This document shows, one piece after another, positions 36,001 to 39,000 of a stretch of 64,000 nt of DNA. The DNA is taken from the NCBI GenBank assembly GCA_963781585.1, contig CAWAGQ010000013.1, forward strand, positions 502,597 to 566,596, read 5' to 3'. The position numbers were made by a program. How positions within the stretch are numbered: position 1 is the first letter of the stretch; every line of letters begins with the position of its first letter. This DNA comes from an uncultured Gemmatimonadaceae bacterium. GTDB lineage: Bacteria; Gemmatimonadota; Gemmatimonadetes; Gemmatimonadales; Gemmatimonadaceae.

Positions 36001-39000
36001 AGACTTCTTCGACCAGTGGCTCGATATCGGTAGGTAGGGTGAAGGTCTCCGTGTTCTCGAGCTTCTCCAGCGTCCGGCGAACCAACATTTCTGCGTACAC
36101 AACTGCAACCTGATCCAATGAAGCCGTCGTCCAAGGGCCATCGGGACACACAATCGTGAGCCGCGGCTCCTTCACCCCCGGAAATCGGTTACCTCGCTGA
36201 TGCCGCCACAGGCGCCCGGCCCGCTGGAGTAGGAGGTCCATCGGCGCGACATCGGTGACCATGAAGTCGAAGTCGACATCGAGGCTCTGCTCTAGCACCT
36301 GGGTCCCGATCACGACGCATCCCTCCGGTCGCTCGGTGTCGCCGCCCTCAGGCCCCAGCCACTTGGCCAGCCGTTCCTCGCGCTCCACGCGGTCAGCTGG
36401 CAGAAGCTGTGAGTGCAGAAGCAGGCGGCCAAGGCCCGCAGCCATCTCGCACACGCGTGTGGTGGCTTCCTGTGCGCGCGCGACCGTGTTGCAGATCCAC
36501 CCTACACATCCGCCGCGCCGCGCCACCTCGATAACCCTGCGCGTAAGCTCGTCTACGTCGTCTCGGCTGCGCTCGACCCCCACCGAGATCGGTTTCCCGC
36601 GAGGTGCAAACGAGTCGACCTTGTTGGAAGTGCGAGATGCGAGAGTGATCCGCGGATAAGGTCCCGTCGGCTGTTCTCCTTCAGGCATTCCGGCACCCTT
36701 GCGATACGCACGAAGGAGGTCGGCGCGGCGGCTGGAGGGCAGGGTGGCCGAGAGCAAGACTACAGTGGTGCCGGTGGCAGCGAGCCACTCGACGAGACGA
36801 TCGAGCAGATTACTGGTATAGGTGTCATATGCATGGATCTCATCGAAGATCACGACCTTGCTGGCAAGCCCGTAGAGTCGGACGAATGCGTGGGGCACAC
36901 GCATGACGCCAAGTAACGCCTGGTCGATCGTCCCGACTGCGAATTCGCCGAGCAGTTTGCGCTTCTTCGACAGGAACCACGCCTCGGCGCGCACCGCCCC
37001 GACGCCTTCAGCATCGCTGTCGTACACCGCCCCTACGCGGAGTTTTCGAAAGCCCTCCCAGAGCGATGCTTCGCCGTGCGCCAAGAGGAGGGTCGAGAGC
37101 GCTCCTCCGCGCGTGCGCGCCAGGAATCGCTCGATACGGCCGAACATCTGATTCGCCGTCGCCTGGGTGGGGAGGCCGATATAGAACCCTCCCTCGCCGA
37201 TCTGCGCGGCCGCGGCATCGGCCAGGGTGAGCGCGGCCTCCGTCTTTCCTTCGCCCATTGGTGCTTCCACGACGATCAGTGAAGGTGTGTCTAGGGTCGG
37301 TGCGATCGAGTCCGCGGCGGAATGCAGGGGCCAAGGGTCCAGCTGCGGGAATAGTTGCCGAAACGACCGCGCCGTCGATGGCGGCGCTGGGCGAAAGCCT
37401 GCATTCTCCAATGCCGTGTCTGCCCGAGCCAGAGCGATTCGCCAGTAGGTGGGCAGCGACCGTTGAGGTGGCTCGTAAAGGAAGAAGTCCTCCATCGAAC
37501 CGATCCAATCCGCGACCGACGTGACACCTGCGAGCAAGACGACGTAGGCGTGATCAATCTGCGCGACACCGGACAGCGAAGTGACACGGAAATGGTCAGC
37601 CATCACCTTGACGACGGCCGCCCGTGCGGAGTCCCATTGCGCTTTCCGGCCACGCTCCCGCGACCCCGGCGGTTTGCAGACGGACGCGTCGGTGGGAAAC
37701 TGCCCGTGATGGGCAGTGACCGCACGCGCCAGACGTAGTGCAGTCGAGGTCGACGCTCCGTAGTGTTCCTCCAACTCTGGTTTGAGGAAGAACAGGCCGA
37801 TGTCTCCGTGAAACCGAGCCCCCTGGTCCGCCTGGAGATCGAATCCACGCTTCGGGAATTCACGTCGGGCCCAATCGACCTTCGCCTGGAAGGCCGGTGT
37901 GGCCTTTCCAAGGTCGTGCAGCGCGATGACAAACAGCAAGGTCCGCAGGCTGTCGAGGCGATCCGTCGACAGCGCCAGCAGCCGGTCCCGTACGGCAGGT
38001 GGCTGTATCGCTGTGAGCAATCGCGCAGCCACGGCTGCGACGTCCAACATGTGACAGAGTAGCGAATGCGCGGGGCAAGACCCCTTGGGTTGTGCCTTAC
38101 CCCAGAGCAGCCACTCCGGCCGCCCGCCCGCATGGCCCAACCACTCGTCAATTGTGTCGGCGGTGAGAGCGGCCGCAGGAGGGACCGGACCGCCAAGCGA
38201 TGCTACCCAGTCACACAAGACGTCGGCCACATTAGCCTCATCTTACTAATAAGGTGGGAGGGTTCGTCGCCCATTGCACATCCATGGCCGCACCTCCAAG
38301 ACAAGCCGGGTCAGGATGCCTCGTGGGACCTCCCGCGCGACGCCGCGTCAAGCTAGCGGTCGATGCCCTGGCCGGTTTGGTCTTCGGGCTTCACGGTCGA
38401 GCGATCATGCCGGGATCGCGGGCCCTGATCGCAAACTTCTCGAACTTGTTTCGGATTCGCTAGGCGCTGTCCGCGCCGCCGTCCTTCGCCTTCCGGCCGG
38501 AAATGCTGCGGCCCCCTCCACCGCGGCAAGAATCCGGTACGTCCTGCGTCATTCTGGTAATTCGGAACGGCGGGATGAGCTCACATTGCCGGTGCGGTTC
38601 GGAGCTCTTTGCGAACCCCGCGCCTGAGTATGCCGGTCTCGCCAGCCCGTTCAGGGTCGCCGGCGTGGCGGAACTGGCAGACGCGGCACCCTCGCAAGGC
38701 GCTGGGCGCAAGCCCGTGTGGGTTCCATTCCCATCGCCGGCACCCACCGTGGTTTCCCTTGACTCGGCACGCCGAGCACGATTATGCTCGGCATACCTTG
38801 CGAGGGTGCCGCGGTCCAGCCACGCTGTGATCGCGCTGAGACGGAGGCGTCAGGTCGGCGCCTCCGTTCCTCTTTACACCGAGGCCCTGCTAGCCCAGGG
38901 ACTCGAGCGTCGCCAGCTCGGGACGATCGTTGAGACGCTGGCACAAGGCGTCTTCGAGGTCGAGTTCTCTCACGACCGGGGTCACACCTATGCGTCGGTG

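Follow-up and report, generated by a model that had tools for sequence, protein, structure and literature searches.

Antisense RNA control is classically exemplified by type I toxin-antitoxin (TA) systems like hok/sok and by plasmid copy-number RNAs. In type VIII TA systems both toxin and antitoxin are RNAs, as in SdsR/RyeA and the CRISPR-linked CreTA, whose toxin CreT is reported to sequester a rare tRNA and whose antitoxin, found within or beside cas genes, carries a degenerate CRISPR repeat. T-boxes pair with 3-4 nt of a tRNA anticodon, sense charging and control the downstream operon, and in E. coli small RNAs (sRNAs) are soaked up by a tRNA operon's 3′ external spacer, which serves as a sponge. 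As to tRNA identity, the G3:U70 wobble pair in the acceptor stem is the major determinant for alanyl-tRNA synthetase, and bacterial leucyl-tRNA synthetase (LeuRS) reads A73, the Leu-type D-arm and the tertiary core. A Streptomyces tRNA combines Pro identity with an Ala anticodon and is accompanied by an adjacent ProRS paralogue. According to passages of PMC11028032, the synthetases for Ala, Leu and Ser ignore the anticodon, and part of PMC6125640 describes yeast tRNA-Ser variants with swapped anticodons as often lethal. Sections of PMC11415595 and PMC5389517 present tRNA-Sec/Cys hybrids and allo-tRNAs as natural hybrid-identity tRNAs of bacteria. In a full-text search of a limited literature collection, we found neither a family of Leu-bodied missense tRNAs nor a module composed of a tRNA and an antisense sRNA.

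The window analysed here is a 64,000-nt stretch of a contig from an uncultured Gemmatimonadaceae bacterium. The genome-wide survey's note had placed in it a tRNA gene with a Leu-type body and a CGC anticodon, and we found it there:

38659..38742, + strand: hybrid-identity class II tRNA (ARAGORN, Rfam, alignment to the genome's own tRNAs, family cloverleaf)
38693..38695, + strand: anticodon CGC, reading GCG, in a canonical 7-nt loop CU-CGC-AA (ARAGORN)

Rfam matches the gene as tRNA over 38659-38742 (45 bits, E 4.1e-08), and its scan put no other family near the gathering score on the module. The best match in the same genome is tRNA-Leu(CAG), with 63 of 84 positions identical, against 49-55/84 for the tRNA-Ser genes, 51/84 for the genuine tRNA-Ala(CGC) and 48/84 for tRNA-Tyr. 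The Leu-type D-arm pattern (GUGGYGRAA..GGYAGAC) and a long variable arm with a short, 4-bp stem are both present, together with A73 (38742) and C3:G70; CCA is not encoded. ARAGORN labels the gene tRNA-Ala(cgc), at 38659-38744. Its anticodon is of the alanine type NGC, but C3:G70 replaces G3:U70, a pair that the genuine tRNA-Ala(CGC) of the genome has (as G3:T70) and that occurs in 0 of 54 relatives. The anticodon is not one of an ordinary tRNA-Leu either (NAG or YAA). As the survey had held, the genome keeps five tRNA-Leu (CAA, TAA, CAG, GAG, TAG) and an ordinary tRNA-Ala(CGC), besides tRNA-Ala with GGC and TGC. The gene thus joins Leu identity elements to an Ala anticodon beside a complete normal tRNA set, and GCG, the codon it reads, is the most frequent of the genome (rank 1, 61.8 per 1000). 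To judge from its identity elements, this tRNA should carry leucine if it is made and matured. The window copy may be slightly worn, perhaps decaying, to judge from its sequence: its anticodon stem contains an A:C mismatch and its T-loop TTCCATT a C57 that is unique among 54 relatives, two blemishes that had been flagged before and are real, and it also has a weak U-tract and a hairpin 1 without the TTCCG word discussed below. Elsewhere in the genome ARAGORN reports further long ‘tRNAs’ (an Ala-ggc of 94 nt, Gly, Trp, Lys and others); they lack T-loops and were therefore taken as false positives in GC-rich coding DNA.

The predicted second gene lies about 50 nt past the tRNA gene on the same strand. 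The elements involved are:

38682..38699, + strand: tRNA segment complementary to the sRNA (exact 18-nt inverted repeat; covariation)
38759..38788, + strand: sigma70-like promoter of the sRNA (-35 TTGACT at 38759-64, 18-nt spacer, -10 TATGCT at 38783-88)
38795..38874, + strand: predicted sRNA of ~80 nt, consisting of 5′ seed, hairpin 1 and terminator hairpin
38796..38813, + strand: seed CCTTGCGAGGGTGCCGCG, exact complement of tRNA positions 38682-38699, including the codon GCG
38808..38836, + strand: hairpin 1 of the sRNA (single-sequence fold)
38840..38876, + strand: GC-rich terminator-like hairpin and tail (11-bp stem, 5-nt loop; fold)

All three parts that the survey had described downstream of the tRNA were recovered, namely the promoter TTGACT-18-TATGCT, the 18-nt exact complement starting 7 nt after the -10 box, and the GC-rich hairpin (38840-38868) with a T-rich tail, although this tail, TCCTCTTTA, is weak. 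The promoter is the sole site called in 1.5 kb by a scan in which 0.1 were expected. The segment complementary to the seed runs from the 3′ strand of the D-stem through base 26, the anticodon stem's 5′ strand and the entire anticodon loop into the 3′ strand, of which it takes in two bases, the first ones; this arm begins one base before the place given by a naive count. The predicted sRNA has an MFE of -42.9 kcal/mol (z -3.48), its centroid structure leaves the 5′ end unpaired, and it matches no family in an Rfam scan. A stricter terminator scan did not call the hairpin at 38840-38868, and none was called between the tRNA and the complement.

A wider sample comprised 57 distinct modules: metagenomes supplied 31 of them, and the other 26 came from 19 genomes of a single order. 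The phylum scan gave 34 hits, 26 of them with a downstream complement; the metagenome scan was restricted to tRNAs in which base 34 is not T. A complement score of at least 11 was required of every module, and related genomes are not independent samples. Scores range from 11 to 20, with the complement mostly 125-190 nt past the tRNA start (26/34 phylum hits, 31 metagenome loci). No same-strand downstream complement scoring at least 11 accompanies any of 36 pattern-matching tRNAs from other phyla. Among the matches listed, one of 121 viral loci has a complement of that score, an AT-rich low-complexity case, and none of the 121 holds a module; a phage origin was rejected on this count. The D-arm word alone is not Leu-specific on phage contigs. 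A broader scan of genome contigs accepted every anticodon with a base other than A in the middle, and the matches listed were swamped by tRNA-Leu genes that group I introns split.

Of the order's 265 genomes, 19 carry modules; of 136 genomes from outside the order, none does. A genome has up to three copies, and one of the same genus lacks the module at the syntenic site. Some hits lie near contig ends. In three of the 57 modules a truncated tRNA stands beside an intact sRNA gene, and one orphan sRNA gene has its own promoter with no tRNA in front of it; such relics match the loss of a toxin with its antitoxin kept. Patchy, multi-copy and varying in context, the module behaves like an accessory element.

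The tRNA's hybrid identity is conserved across the family. A73 is present in 54 of 54 tRNAs and a 7-bp acceptor stem in 53, all have the canonical Y-U-NNN-A loop, and 19 of the 24 predicted pairs of the family cloverleaf show compensatory changes; the variable-arm helix covaries as well. On similar bodies sit ten non-Leu anticodons (CGC, GTC, GCC, GCG, GGC, AGC, CTC, GGT, GGG and GGA), and one acceptor-stem group of eight tRNAs alone spans seven of them. The codons read by 52 of the 57 modules are GCG, GAC, GGC, CGC, GCC and GAG, which rank 1, 6, 5, 7, 3 and 10 in the window genome, and none of the 57 has an anticodon for those Val or Ile codons that are just as common. The anticodons mostly read the commonest codons of the genome at which leucine is a disruptive replacement, a change from Val or Ile to Leu being mild. 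AGC (two modules), GGA (one) and GGG (one) read rarer codons (ranks 41, 31 and 24) and are therefore a misfit with a rule of maximal damage.

The seed and the tRNA change together. In an alignment of 21 modules (A1), 85.7% of seed:tRNA cells pair against 31-44% in slid controls, a percentage that is partly circular given the selection by complement score of at least 11, so that the controls and the covariation carry the weight: double-change cells number 101 versus 18-24 in slid controls, and covariation is seen at 16 of the 23 pairs. When all 57 modules are taken together, Watson-Crick pairs fill 922 of the 1083 cells, a count subject to the same circularity, and among the remainder G.U (57) exceeds A.C (32), so the pairing looks like that of RNA made from this strand. 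The own sRNA is the best or tied partner of its tRNA in 48/57 modules, and the median own pairing score is 15, compared with 7 for sRNAs from other modules that share the anticodon. The predicted heterodimer gain has a median of -20.1 kcal/mol for own pairs (44/44 below -5) versus -0.8 kcal/mol for random partners (10/44 below -5). The seed therefore tracks its own tRNA through the stems and across ten anticodons on similar bodies.

These data bear on two readings in which the pair is not what it seems. One of them denies any RNA function and sees in the locus a DNA-level inverted repeat, such as a recombination site or mobile-element end, or else a decaying tRNA pseudogene. The blemishes of the window copy, the hits near contig ends and the truncated copies would fit it, but across 57 copies the cloverleaf and the tRNA:sRNA duplex alike are maintained by compensatory changes, G.U exceeds A.C, promoter and terminator are conserved in register, and no transposase or integrase is conserved among 119 neighbouring ORFs of 20 loci. 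We consider it extremely improbable. We give just as little credence to a reversal of roles, with the sRNA as an effector on mRNAs elsewhere and the tRNA-like transcript as its sponge or decoy. The sRNA body does have an 18-nt exact match elsewhere in the genome (contig C13, 204092-204109; E 0.029). Against this, the seed varies from copy to copy and follows the neighbouring tRNA, so that no common external target can be conserved, and a sponge needs neither a covarying cloverleaf nor synthetase identity elements.

The remainder of the sRNA gene is conserved in position. A promoter motif of the same class stands in register in 51/57 modules, compared with 0-3 of 52-57 at decoys; between the end of the -10 box and the seed lie most commonly 6 nt, and 4-8 nt in 48 of the 51 promoter-bearing modules. 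A terminator-like hairpin with a T-rich tail follows in 47 of the 57, giving a predicted sRNA with a median length of 74 nt (47 modules). In relatives, TTCCGCC-like words that could pair with the D-arm's 5′ strand are often present in hairpin 1, within the loop and the 3′ strand, and an anti-D-arm word of at least 6 nt occurs in 16/44 modules versus 3/44 in a reversed control; hairpin 1 accordingly looks like a relic of an antisense D-arm. RNAalifold returned no consensus structure for 44 sRNAs because spacer and terminator are poorly aligned. The sRNA gene is predicted from these motifs to be an independent transcription unit. Since the seed covaries with anticodon and stem, and promoter and terminator are in register, the survey's interpretation of the downstream element as a separate, promoter-driven sRNA antisense to the tRNA is supported. 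Control purely in cis, in which the complement folds back within a read-through transcript and blocks maturation while the promoter-like motif is secondary, is very unlikely in our judgement: the terminator-free interval between tRNA and complement would allow it, and the pairing potential of the leader (see below) suggests intramolecular locks, but both the placement of the promoter relative to the decoys and to the seed and the orphan sRNA gene with its own promoter speak against it.

Upstream of the tRNA, an alignment of 52 modules shows conservation as far as about -190. In the window this region contains:

38470..38658, + strand: conserved upstream region, putative 5′ leader of the tRNA (52-module alignment)
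38582-38587, + strand: -10-like box CACATT, without a canonical -35
38609-38616, + strand: leader box TTGCGAAC, which can pair with the anticodon loop
38619-24, + strand: leader box CGCGCC, which can pair with the 3′ strand of the D-stem
38640-44, + strand: leader box CGCCA, which can pair with tRNA positions 8-12

No canonical sigma70 promoter was found for the tRNA, only a -10-like box ~65-80 nt upstream. Of 54 modules, 29 have a TAnnnT box whose end falls between -80 and -61, with no TTGnnn -35 lying 16-18 nt away; resemblance to the sigma32 or sigma54 consensus, judged by eye, was unconvincing, and the idea was dropped. Leader:tRNA cells pair in 80.7%, compared with 31-47% in slid controls, with the structure derived from these same sequences, and the covariation is weak (17 double changes versus 8-18 in controls). 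The long conserved leader, a weaker complement to the 5′ half of the tRNA, may add a cis-acting lock.

From the gene anatomy, conservation and covariation observed in the 57 modules we infer, with slightly better than even confidence, a toxin-antitoxin-like module of two RNAs, in which a Leu-charged missense tRNA is restrained by the antisense sRNA of its own module; the inferred part takes in transcription, charging with leucine, in vivo pairing, toxicity and what acts as trigger. The first gene would encode a tRNA descended from tRNA-Leu with its anticodon changed to CGC, which, charged with leucine, would insert Leu at GCG codons proteome-wide, to damaging effect. The second, with its own strong sigma70-type promoter and its own terminator, would produce an sRNA of about 75-80 nt whose 5′ end nucleates on the exposed anticodon loop and then invades both stems. 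Such pairing would unfold or block the tRNA or its precursor, and the duplex of 15-20 bp would probably also be a substrate for a double-strand RNase. An sRNA that unfolds or blocks a miscoding tRNA would be, therefore, an antitoxin to a toxic tRNA. If the tRNA is stable and the sRNA short-lived, a stop of host transcription, be it through phage attack, stress or the element's loss, would release the tRNA and set off mass mistranslation; release upon a transcription stop is the logic of TA or abortive infection. More tentatively, and with rather less than even confidence, the tRNA, stable and Leu-charged, may be the toxin of a protein-free TA or abortive-infection system: with its anticodon swapped to match the host's most frequent codons for Ala, Gly, Asp, Arg and Glu, and silenced by the short-lived sRNA and a cis-inhibitory leader, it would flood the proteome with leucine at transcription shut-off, the orthogonal pairs evolving as programmable addiction or immunity cassettes.

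The genomic surroundings are mixed. Some copies adjoin defence or TA genes (the type I-E cas3 of the window, HigB, ParE, AbiEii, a Schlafen-like helicase) and others housekeeping genes. Several have proteostasis genes beside them: tig-clpP-clpX (locus L153), hsp20-lon (L156) and hrcA-dnaJ (L159). This last set bears on a different use of the same anatomy, namely tunable, beneficial mistranslation, in which the tRNA at low dose diversifies or adapts the proteome under stress, a role also suggested for other natural mistranslating tRNAs, and the sRNA is a rheostat rather than an antitoxin. Gene anatomy would be identical under both readings, and part of PMC11415595 reviews natural hybrid-identity tRNAs without known benefit. 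We regard a beneficial role as unlikely, given that non-conservative changes (Ala, Gly, Asp, Arg or Glu to Leu) at the most frequent codons are hardly mild, and that the patchy, multi-copy accessory spread and the relics resemble selfish or defence modules.

Among 119 ORFs neighbouring the module in 20 loci, which were picked with a crude heuristic based on GC3 and not including some real genes (e.g. cas3 of the window), no protein partner is conserved; specifically, no transferase, synthetase, transposase or integrase is conserved beside the module, and no aminoacyl-tRNA synthetase domain occurs in these ORFs or in nine ORFs of the window. This result weighs on the notion that the tRNA does not decode at all and instead either donates its aminoacyl group to a non-ribosomal reaction or, uncharged, acts as an A-site decoy triggering the stringent response, with the sRNA as regulator. 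Donor and decoy would each need the conserved tRNA fold and A73, and an uncharged tRNA for the commonest codon would presumably signal alarm effectively. A non-decoding role is nevertheless quite unlikely: the 119 ORFs hold no conserved transferase, synthetase or other protein gene, a pure donor would have no need of canonical anticodon loops directed at abundant codons or of an antisense RNA with the anticodon at its centre, and the conserved LeuRS identity set argues that the tRNA is charged.

In the window, the module lies 430 nt upstream of a type I-E cas3 gene. No cas genes were seen at the 20 other loci surveyed (21 modules). When up to three mismatches are allowed, the one place where a 24-nt core of the CRISPR repeat matches is the array at 26558-29297, with 44 copies; no word within that distance of it occurs near the module (38400-38900). 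Identity with CreTA was rejected, as no CRISPR-repeat-like word is near the module and cas genes stand beside the window copy only.

Even on the most cautious reading, a tRNA gene and an adjacent antisense sRNA gene that co-evolve over 57 copies are a new kind of gene pair. If the toxin-antitoxin-like reading is true, two small RNAs without any dedicated protein would break the genetic code deliberately, switchably and proteome-wide; a tRNA would join the known toxins, and a natural sRNA would have a mature or precursor tRNA as its dedicated target. The old question of whether mistranslation can be a regulated and selected bacterial trait would become testable in a minimal module of about 400 bp. 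Orthogonal tRNA/anti-tRNA pairs, with easy anticodon swaps on one body, would also be of use in synthetic biology, for conditional missense or nonsense suppression and kill switches.

Compared with the known systems, the module resembles natural hybrid-identity tRNAs in that identity and anticodon disagree, a normal tRNA set is kept and the spread is patchy. It differs from them in its Leu body and in carrying ten anticodons on similar bodies, from the Streptomyces Pro/Ala case in having no dedicated synthetase gene nearby, and from all those in the literature searched in that each module counted has a co-varying antisense sRNA gene. Like a T-box leader, it appears to read a specific tRNA via its anticodon and continues into a terminator hairpin; unlike a T-box, it pairs over 11-20 nt, which would need the tRNA stems unzipped, it has no conserved downstream gene, and Rfam gave no T-box match on it at E up to 10. 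With hok/sok and the plasmid copy-number RNAs it shares a short promoter-driven RNA with a terminator hairpin and a 5′ or loop seed that would neutralise a harmful neighbour, and, as in type I TA and antisense control, recognition is likely loop-first and the system is accessory, multi-copy and leaves relics. In contrast to type I TA, the target is a tRNA rather than the mRNA of a small toxic peptide, there is no conserved ORF in or beside the module, and the sRNA gene lies downstream on the same strand, forming an inverted repeat instead of overlapping on the opposite strand. The likeness to type VIII TA is that both partners would be non-coding RNAs, as the gene anatomy of a tRNA beside an sRNA bounded by promoter and terminator motifs suggests, and that translation would be attacked. 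Unlike in CreTA, the toxin would be a miscoding tRNA rather than a sequestering RNA, and the antitoxin would pair with it directly, with no Cascade guide.

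ARAGORN calls two tRNAs in the window, and one of them, labelled tRNA-Ala(cgc), had been read in the genome-wide survey's note as a Leu-type tRNA with a CGC anticodon. The features of the region are as follows.

26558–29297: CRISPR array of 44 repeats, repeat core GATCCCCGCGCGCGCGGGGGAAAC
32084–38230: type I-E CRISPR-Cas genes (Cas7-like, Cse1 and cas3; cas3 on the − strand, cse1 and cas7 beyond it)
38659–38744, + strand: tRNA-Ala(cgc) by ARAGORN label
38881–39168, + strand: DUF4926 fragment (E = 3.5e-12, profile positions 10–54 of 57)
39228–39302, − strand: tRNA-Asn(gtt), the second ARAGORN call

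The Leu-type reading stands. Rfam recognises 38659–38742 as a tRNA (45 bits, E = 4.1e-08), and no further Rfam family came near its gathering score across 38300–39400. The acceptor stem is GCCGGCG/CGCCGGC with discriminator A73, the D-arm is GUGGCGGAACUGGCAGACGC, the anticodon stem GCACC/GGCGC contains one A:C mismatch and carries the loop CU-CGC-AA, the variable arm has 4 bp and the T-loop reads UUCCAUU. The best match within the source genome (G000) is Leu(CAG), with 63 of 84 positions identical, against 55–60 for the other Leu tRNAs, 49–55 for Ser, 48 for Tyr and 51 for the genuine Ala(CGC), which has G3:T70. According to whole-genome ARAGORN calls, G000 has five tRNA-Leu (CAA, TAA, CAG, GAG and TAG) and ordinary tRNA-Ala with anticodons CGC (contigs C2 and C6), GGC and TGC. 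Six more over-long ARAGORN calls in this genome, none with a T-loop, appear to be false positives.

The promoter, antisense stretch and GC-rich hairpin that the survey had placed 3′ of the tRNA were found as well; since the tRNA body, promoter, exact complement and hairpins can all be located in the window, the observation is correct. TTGACT-18-TATGCT at 38759–38788 is the sole promoter-scan site downstream (0.1 expected). Beginning 7 nt past it, 38796–38813 is the exact reverse complement of 38682–38699, which spans the 3′ strand of the D-stem, base 26, the 5′ strand of the anticodon stem, the entire loop and two further bases. The 80-nt RNA starting at 38795 has a predicted MFE of −42.9 kcal/mol (z = −3.48); its fold leaves the 5′ end free and forms hairpin 1 and, last, a GC-rich hairpin, followed by a weak U-tract. 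Together with the A:C mismatch and C57, this weak tract may point to decay of a worn copy. Separately, 18 nt of the sRNA body (window 38808–38825) recur exactly at 204092–204109 of the same contig (E = 0.029), a match that could be either chance or a second target.

Relatives were collected with a pattern that requires the Leu D-arm and, after it, an anticodon with a middle base other than A. It matches G000 once and, across 401 genomes of the phylum, gives 34 matches in 25 genomes (one in the unpublished genome G182), where its reversed form, the control, gives none. For each tRNA, the following 250 nt were then searched for the best ungapped complement of its anticodon arm. Such a complement, scoring 11–20 and mostly 125–170 nt from the tRNA start, accompanies 26 of the 34; the eight others comprise four with Pro anticodons (TGG or CGG), a CGA tRNA that is truncated, the TGA of G182, one GCG whose match is just 7 nt long and one GCC from another order. 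The 26 modules, as we call the tRNA together with its downstream predicted antisense sRNA, occur in 19 genomes from three families of the order to which G000 belongs (carriers: 19 of 265 genomes within the order versus 0 of 136 outside). A metagenome scan, which imposed a base other than T at position 34 and A at position 37 (118 loci among the matches listed), added at least 31 distinct modules, yielding a working set of 57 that was chosen by complement score and in which related genomes are not independent samples. Among the matches listed, none of 36 pattern-matching tRNAs of other phyla has a downstream complement scoring at least 11, and one of 121 viral loci does, in AT-rich low-complexity sequence. 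As a further control, the 250 nt ahead of the tRNA at the same loci score 4–10 with one exception, family member L139 (13).

Several tRNAs outside this set deserve mention. Leu-bodied tRNAs with Pro anticodons (TGG, CGG) and no downstream sRNA occur in the phylum (L126, L132, L137, L143) and in Terriglobia MAGs (L010, L047). L132 and L137 share a homologous small basic ORF (..GPKPETL..) 3′ of the tRNA, and in L010 and L047 the sequence CTTCCAAGG, about 60 nt upstream, is the complement of the tRNA's own anticodon loop. Class II, A73, Leu-like tRNAs with non-Leu anticodons were seen across many phyla (L005–L116, among the matches listed, in a scan of genome contigs dominated by intron-split tRNA-Leu genes), including ACC, ATC, TGT, TGC, GGC, GTC, CTG, TCC, TCG, GGT and AGA as well as the stop-reading TTA and CTA, in hosts such as Saccharibacteria, Actinomycetota, Acidobacteriota, Myxococcota and Pseudomonadota; none of those listed has a downstream complement. 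Outside this lineage the D-arm pattern by itself is not diagnostic of a Leu body, since on phage contigs (L288–L408) class I tRNAs (His, Asn and others) carry the 'Leu-type' word too, as do intron-like interrupted genes.

In 54 of the 57 modules ARAGORN calls the whole tRNA. In the remaining three (L125, L183, L185) the tRNA breaks off past the anticodon or variable arm, while sRNA promoter, seed (the 5′ stretch complementary to the D-stem/anticodon arm of the module's own tRNA) and terminator are intact. All 54 complete tRNAs have A73, none has G3:U70 or an encoded CCA, and 53 have a 7-bp acceptor stem; their T-loops are mostly UUCRANU, with UUCCAUU confined to the window copy. The RNAalifold consensus is a class II cloverleaf of 24 pairs, 19 of them with compensatory changes. 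Anticodons of the 57 modules are CGC (29), GTC (8), GCC (6), GCG (5), AGC, GGC and CTC (2 each), and GGT, GGG and GGA (1 each), always within a Y-U-NNN-A loop, although in the metagenome set A37 and the exclusion of T at base 34 were imposed by the pattern. One body can bear many anticodons: seven in the acceptor group GCCCGGG (8 tRNAs), four in GCCGGCG (11) and three in GCGGGTG (14). As judged from these patterns, selection maintains the module tRNA as a tRNA of Leu identity.

Covariation between seed and tRNA was assessed on an alignment (A1) of 21 of the 26 genome modules, the truncated L125 and four more divergent GCG modules having been left out before counting. Across 23 proposed intermolecular pairs, 85.7% of cells (one pair in one module) can pair, versus 31–44% when the partner is slid by 1–3 columns; both sides have changed in 101 cells versus 18–24, compensatory changes affect 16 pairs, and none of 500 shuffles reaches the observed score. 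When all 57 modules are counted at 19 positions, Watson–Crick pairs make up 922 of the 1083 cells, with 57 G·U, 32 A·C and 72 other, and the excess of G·U over A·C fits RNA pairing on this strand rather than DNA pairing. The module's own sRNA is the best or tied partner of its tRNA in 48 of 57 cases (median score 15, versus 5 when every other sRNA is taken and 7 when only those of the same anticodon are). For the 44 modules in which ARAGORN recognises the tRNA and a terminator was called as well, the median RNAcofold gain is −20.1 kcal/mol for own pairs (44/44 below −5; window −13.4) versus −0.8 for a random other partner (10/44 below −5).

Of the 57 modules, 51 have a promoter motif (TTGnnn-16..19-nAnnnT, with the −10 box ending 2–12 nt ahead of the seed), versus 0–3 of 52–57 at six decoy offsets; the most frequent −35 box is TTGACT (17 times) and the most frequent gap between −10 box and seed 6 nt (26/51). 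A hairpin, usually of 10–12 bp, with a T-rich tail follows 30–55 nt past the seed in 47 of 57, and the predicted sRNA has a median length of 74 nt. Going by these signals, the sRNA is a transcription unit. Pairing, partner choice and promoter together bear out the survey's proposal that the Leu-bodied tRNA is paired with an antisense sRNA. In predicted folds the seed is often a small hairpin that mirrors the anticodon stem-loop in antisense, and otherwise an unpaired 5′ tail; both forms would permit loop–loop or tail–loop nucleation on the anticodon loop. Hairpin 1 contains words of at least 6 nt complementary to the 5′ strand of the D-arm in 16 of 44 modules (3 of 44 in the reversed control), so that the sRNA resembles an inverted copy of the tRNA 5′ half that has since diverged. 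At L121 (genome G156) an orphan sRNA gene lies about 330 to 190 nt upstream of the CGC tRNA, with a TTGACT-17-GATCTT promoter and a terminator identical to that of the module's own sRNA; its seed complements the arm of a CTC-anticodon tRNA, with G opposite U33, and no such tRNA was found in G156 by pattern scan.

Sequence conservation reaches about −190 upstream of the tRNA. Of 54 modules, 29 have a TAnnnT box that ends at −80 to −61 and is not preceded by a canonical −35, which implies that the putative tRNA promoter is weaker or differently controlled, with a leader of about 65–70 nt. In MFE folds of leader plus tRNA, leader boxes repeatedly pair with the anticodon loop, the 3′ strand of the D-stem and positions 8–12. 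On A1 such pairing holds for 80.7% of cells versus 31–47% slid, the structure having been derived from the same sequences, and covariation is weak (17 double changes versus 8–18). A cis-acting lock formed by the leader is plausible.

The module lies 430 nt upstream of the divergent type I-E cas3 (35453–38230, − strand). Homology to DUF4926 starts directly past the sRNA terminator, with no in-frame start codon. Probably a gene was cut short there by the module or island, or was fused to its edge; tRNA-Asn and a short-chain dehydrogenase gene follow. The same-genus genome G401 (64% complete) shares tRNA-Asn, the dehydrogenase and an MscS-like gene with window 39228–41000 (its contig C26, L410). 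Left of tRNA-Asn its sequence is unrelated, cas genes, module and DUF4926 being absent at that site, and the pattern found no module anywhere in this 64% complete genome. Since synteny extends only rightwards from tRNA-Asn, cas locus, module and DUF4926 form a variable island abutting it. No protein family recurs beside the module in 20 other loci (119 ORFs, heuristic calling). Many neighbours are ordinary metabolism genes; others are toxin–antitoxin (TA) or defence genes (HigB + HTH and AbiEii at L162; ParE at L166; WYL regulator, helicase and Uma2 at L163; Schlafen-like helicase and HNH at L168; Uma2 and Smr at L150) or proteostasis genes (tig-clpP-clpX at L153, hsp20-lon at L156, hrcA-dnaJ at L159). 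As to the assembly itself, contig pairs C2/C6 (Ala-CGC and Gln-CTG) and C5/C8 (Cys and Phe) carry the same tRNA pairs at similar offsets, and G000 measures 5.7 Mb with 7.19% contamination (relatives, 3–5 Mb); it may hold duplicated or two-strain contigs.

GCG is the commonest codon of G000 (61.8 per 1000 in 1233 long ORFs), and GCC, GGC, GAC, CGC and GAG rank 3, 5, 6, 7 and 10. These six are read by 52 of the 57 modules; among the exceptions, AGC, GGA and GGG read rarer codons. The remaining top-ten codons specify Leu (CTG, CTC), Val (GTG) and Ile (ATC), and none of the 57 modules targets these four; Leu at Val or Ile codons would be a mild change. Bacterial LeuRS is known not to read the anticodon (PMC11028032), and therefore module tRNAs are expected to decode Ala, Gly, Asp, Arg and Glu codons as Leu.

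TA logic would fit the pairing of a strong predicted sRNA promoter with a weak putative tRNA promoter. tRNAs are long-lived, and sRNAs usually are not. It would also fit the patchy, variable location, the coexistence of orthogonal pairs in a single genome (G038 and G093, for example, have two or three CGC copies that differ in their stems), and the relics L125, L183 and L185 with the L121 orphan, where the 'toxin' appears broken and the 'antitoxin' kept. Most likely, the module is a switch keeping a Leu-inserting missense tRNA silent. Full-text literature searches returned, among the papers covered, no description of this family or of any tRNA/anti-tRNA sRNA gene pair, and the portion consulted of the allo-tRNA paper (PMC5389517) mentions neither tRNA-Leu bodies nor antisense. 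On sequence grounds, we conclude that this is a real, conserved and co-evolving tRNA/antisense-sRNA gene pair of a kind that we did not find described. Its tRNA belongs with the natural hybrid-identity tRNAs, a group covered by a 2024 JBC review of tRNAs in mistranslation (PMC11415595), but has no dedicated synthetase beside it. Compared with CreTA, the module lacks a repeat-like guide and a general link to cas genes, and compared with type I TA it lacks the defining protein toxin. In its predicted action it most resembles an antisense-controlled TA pair following type I or type VIII logic.
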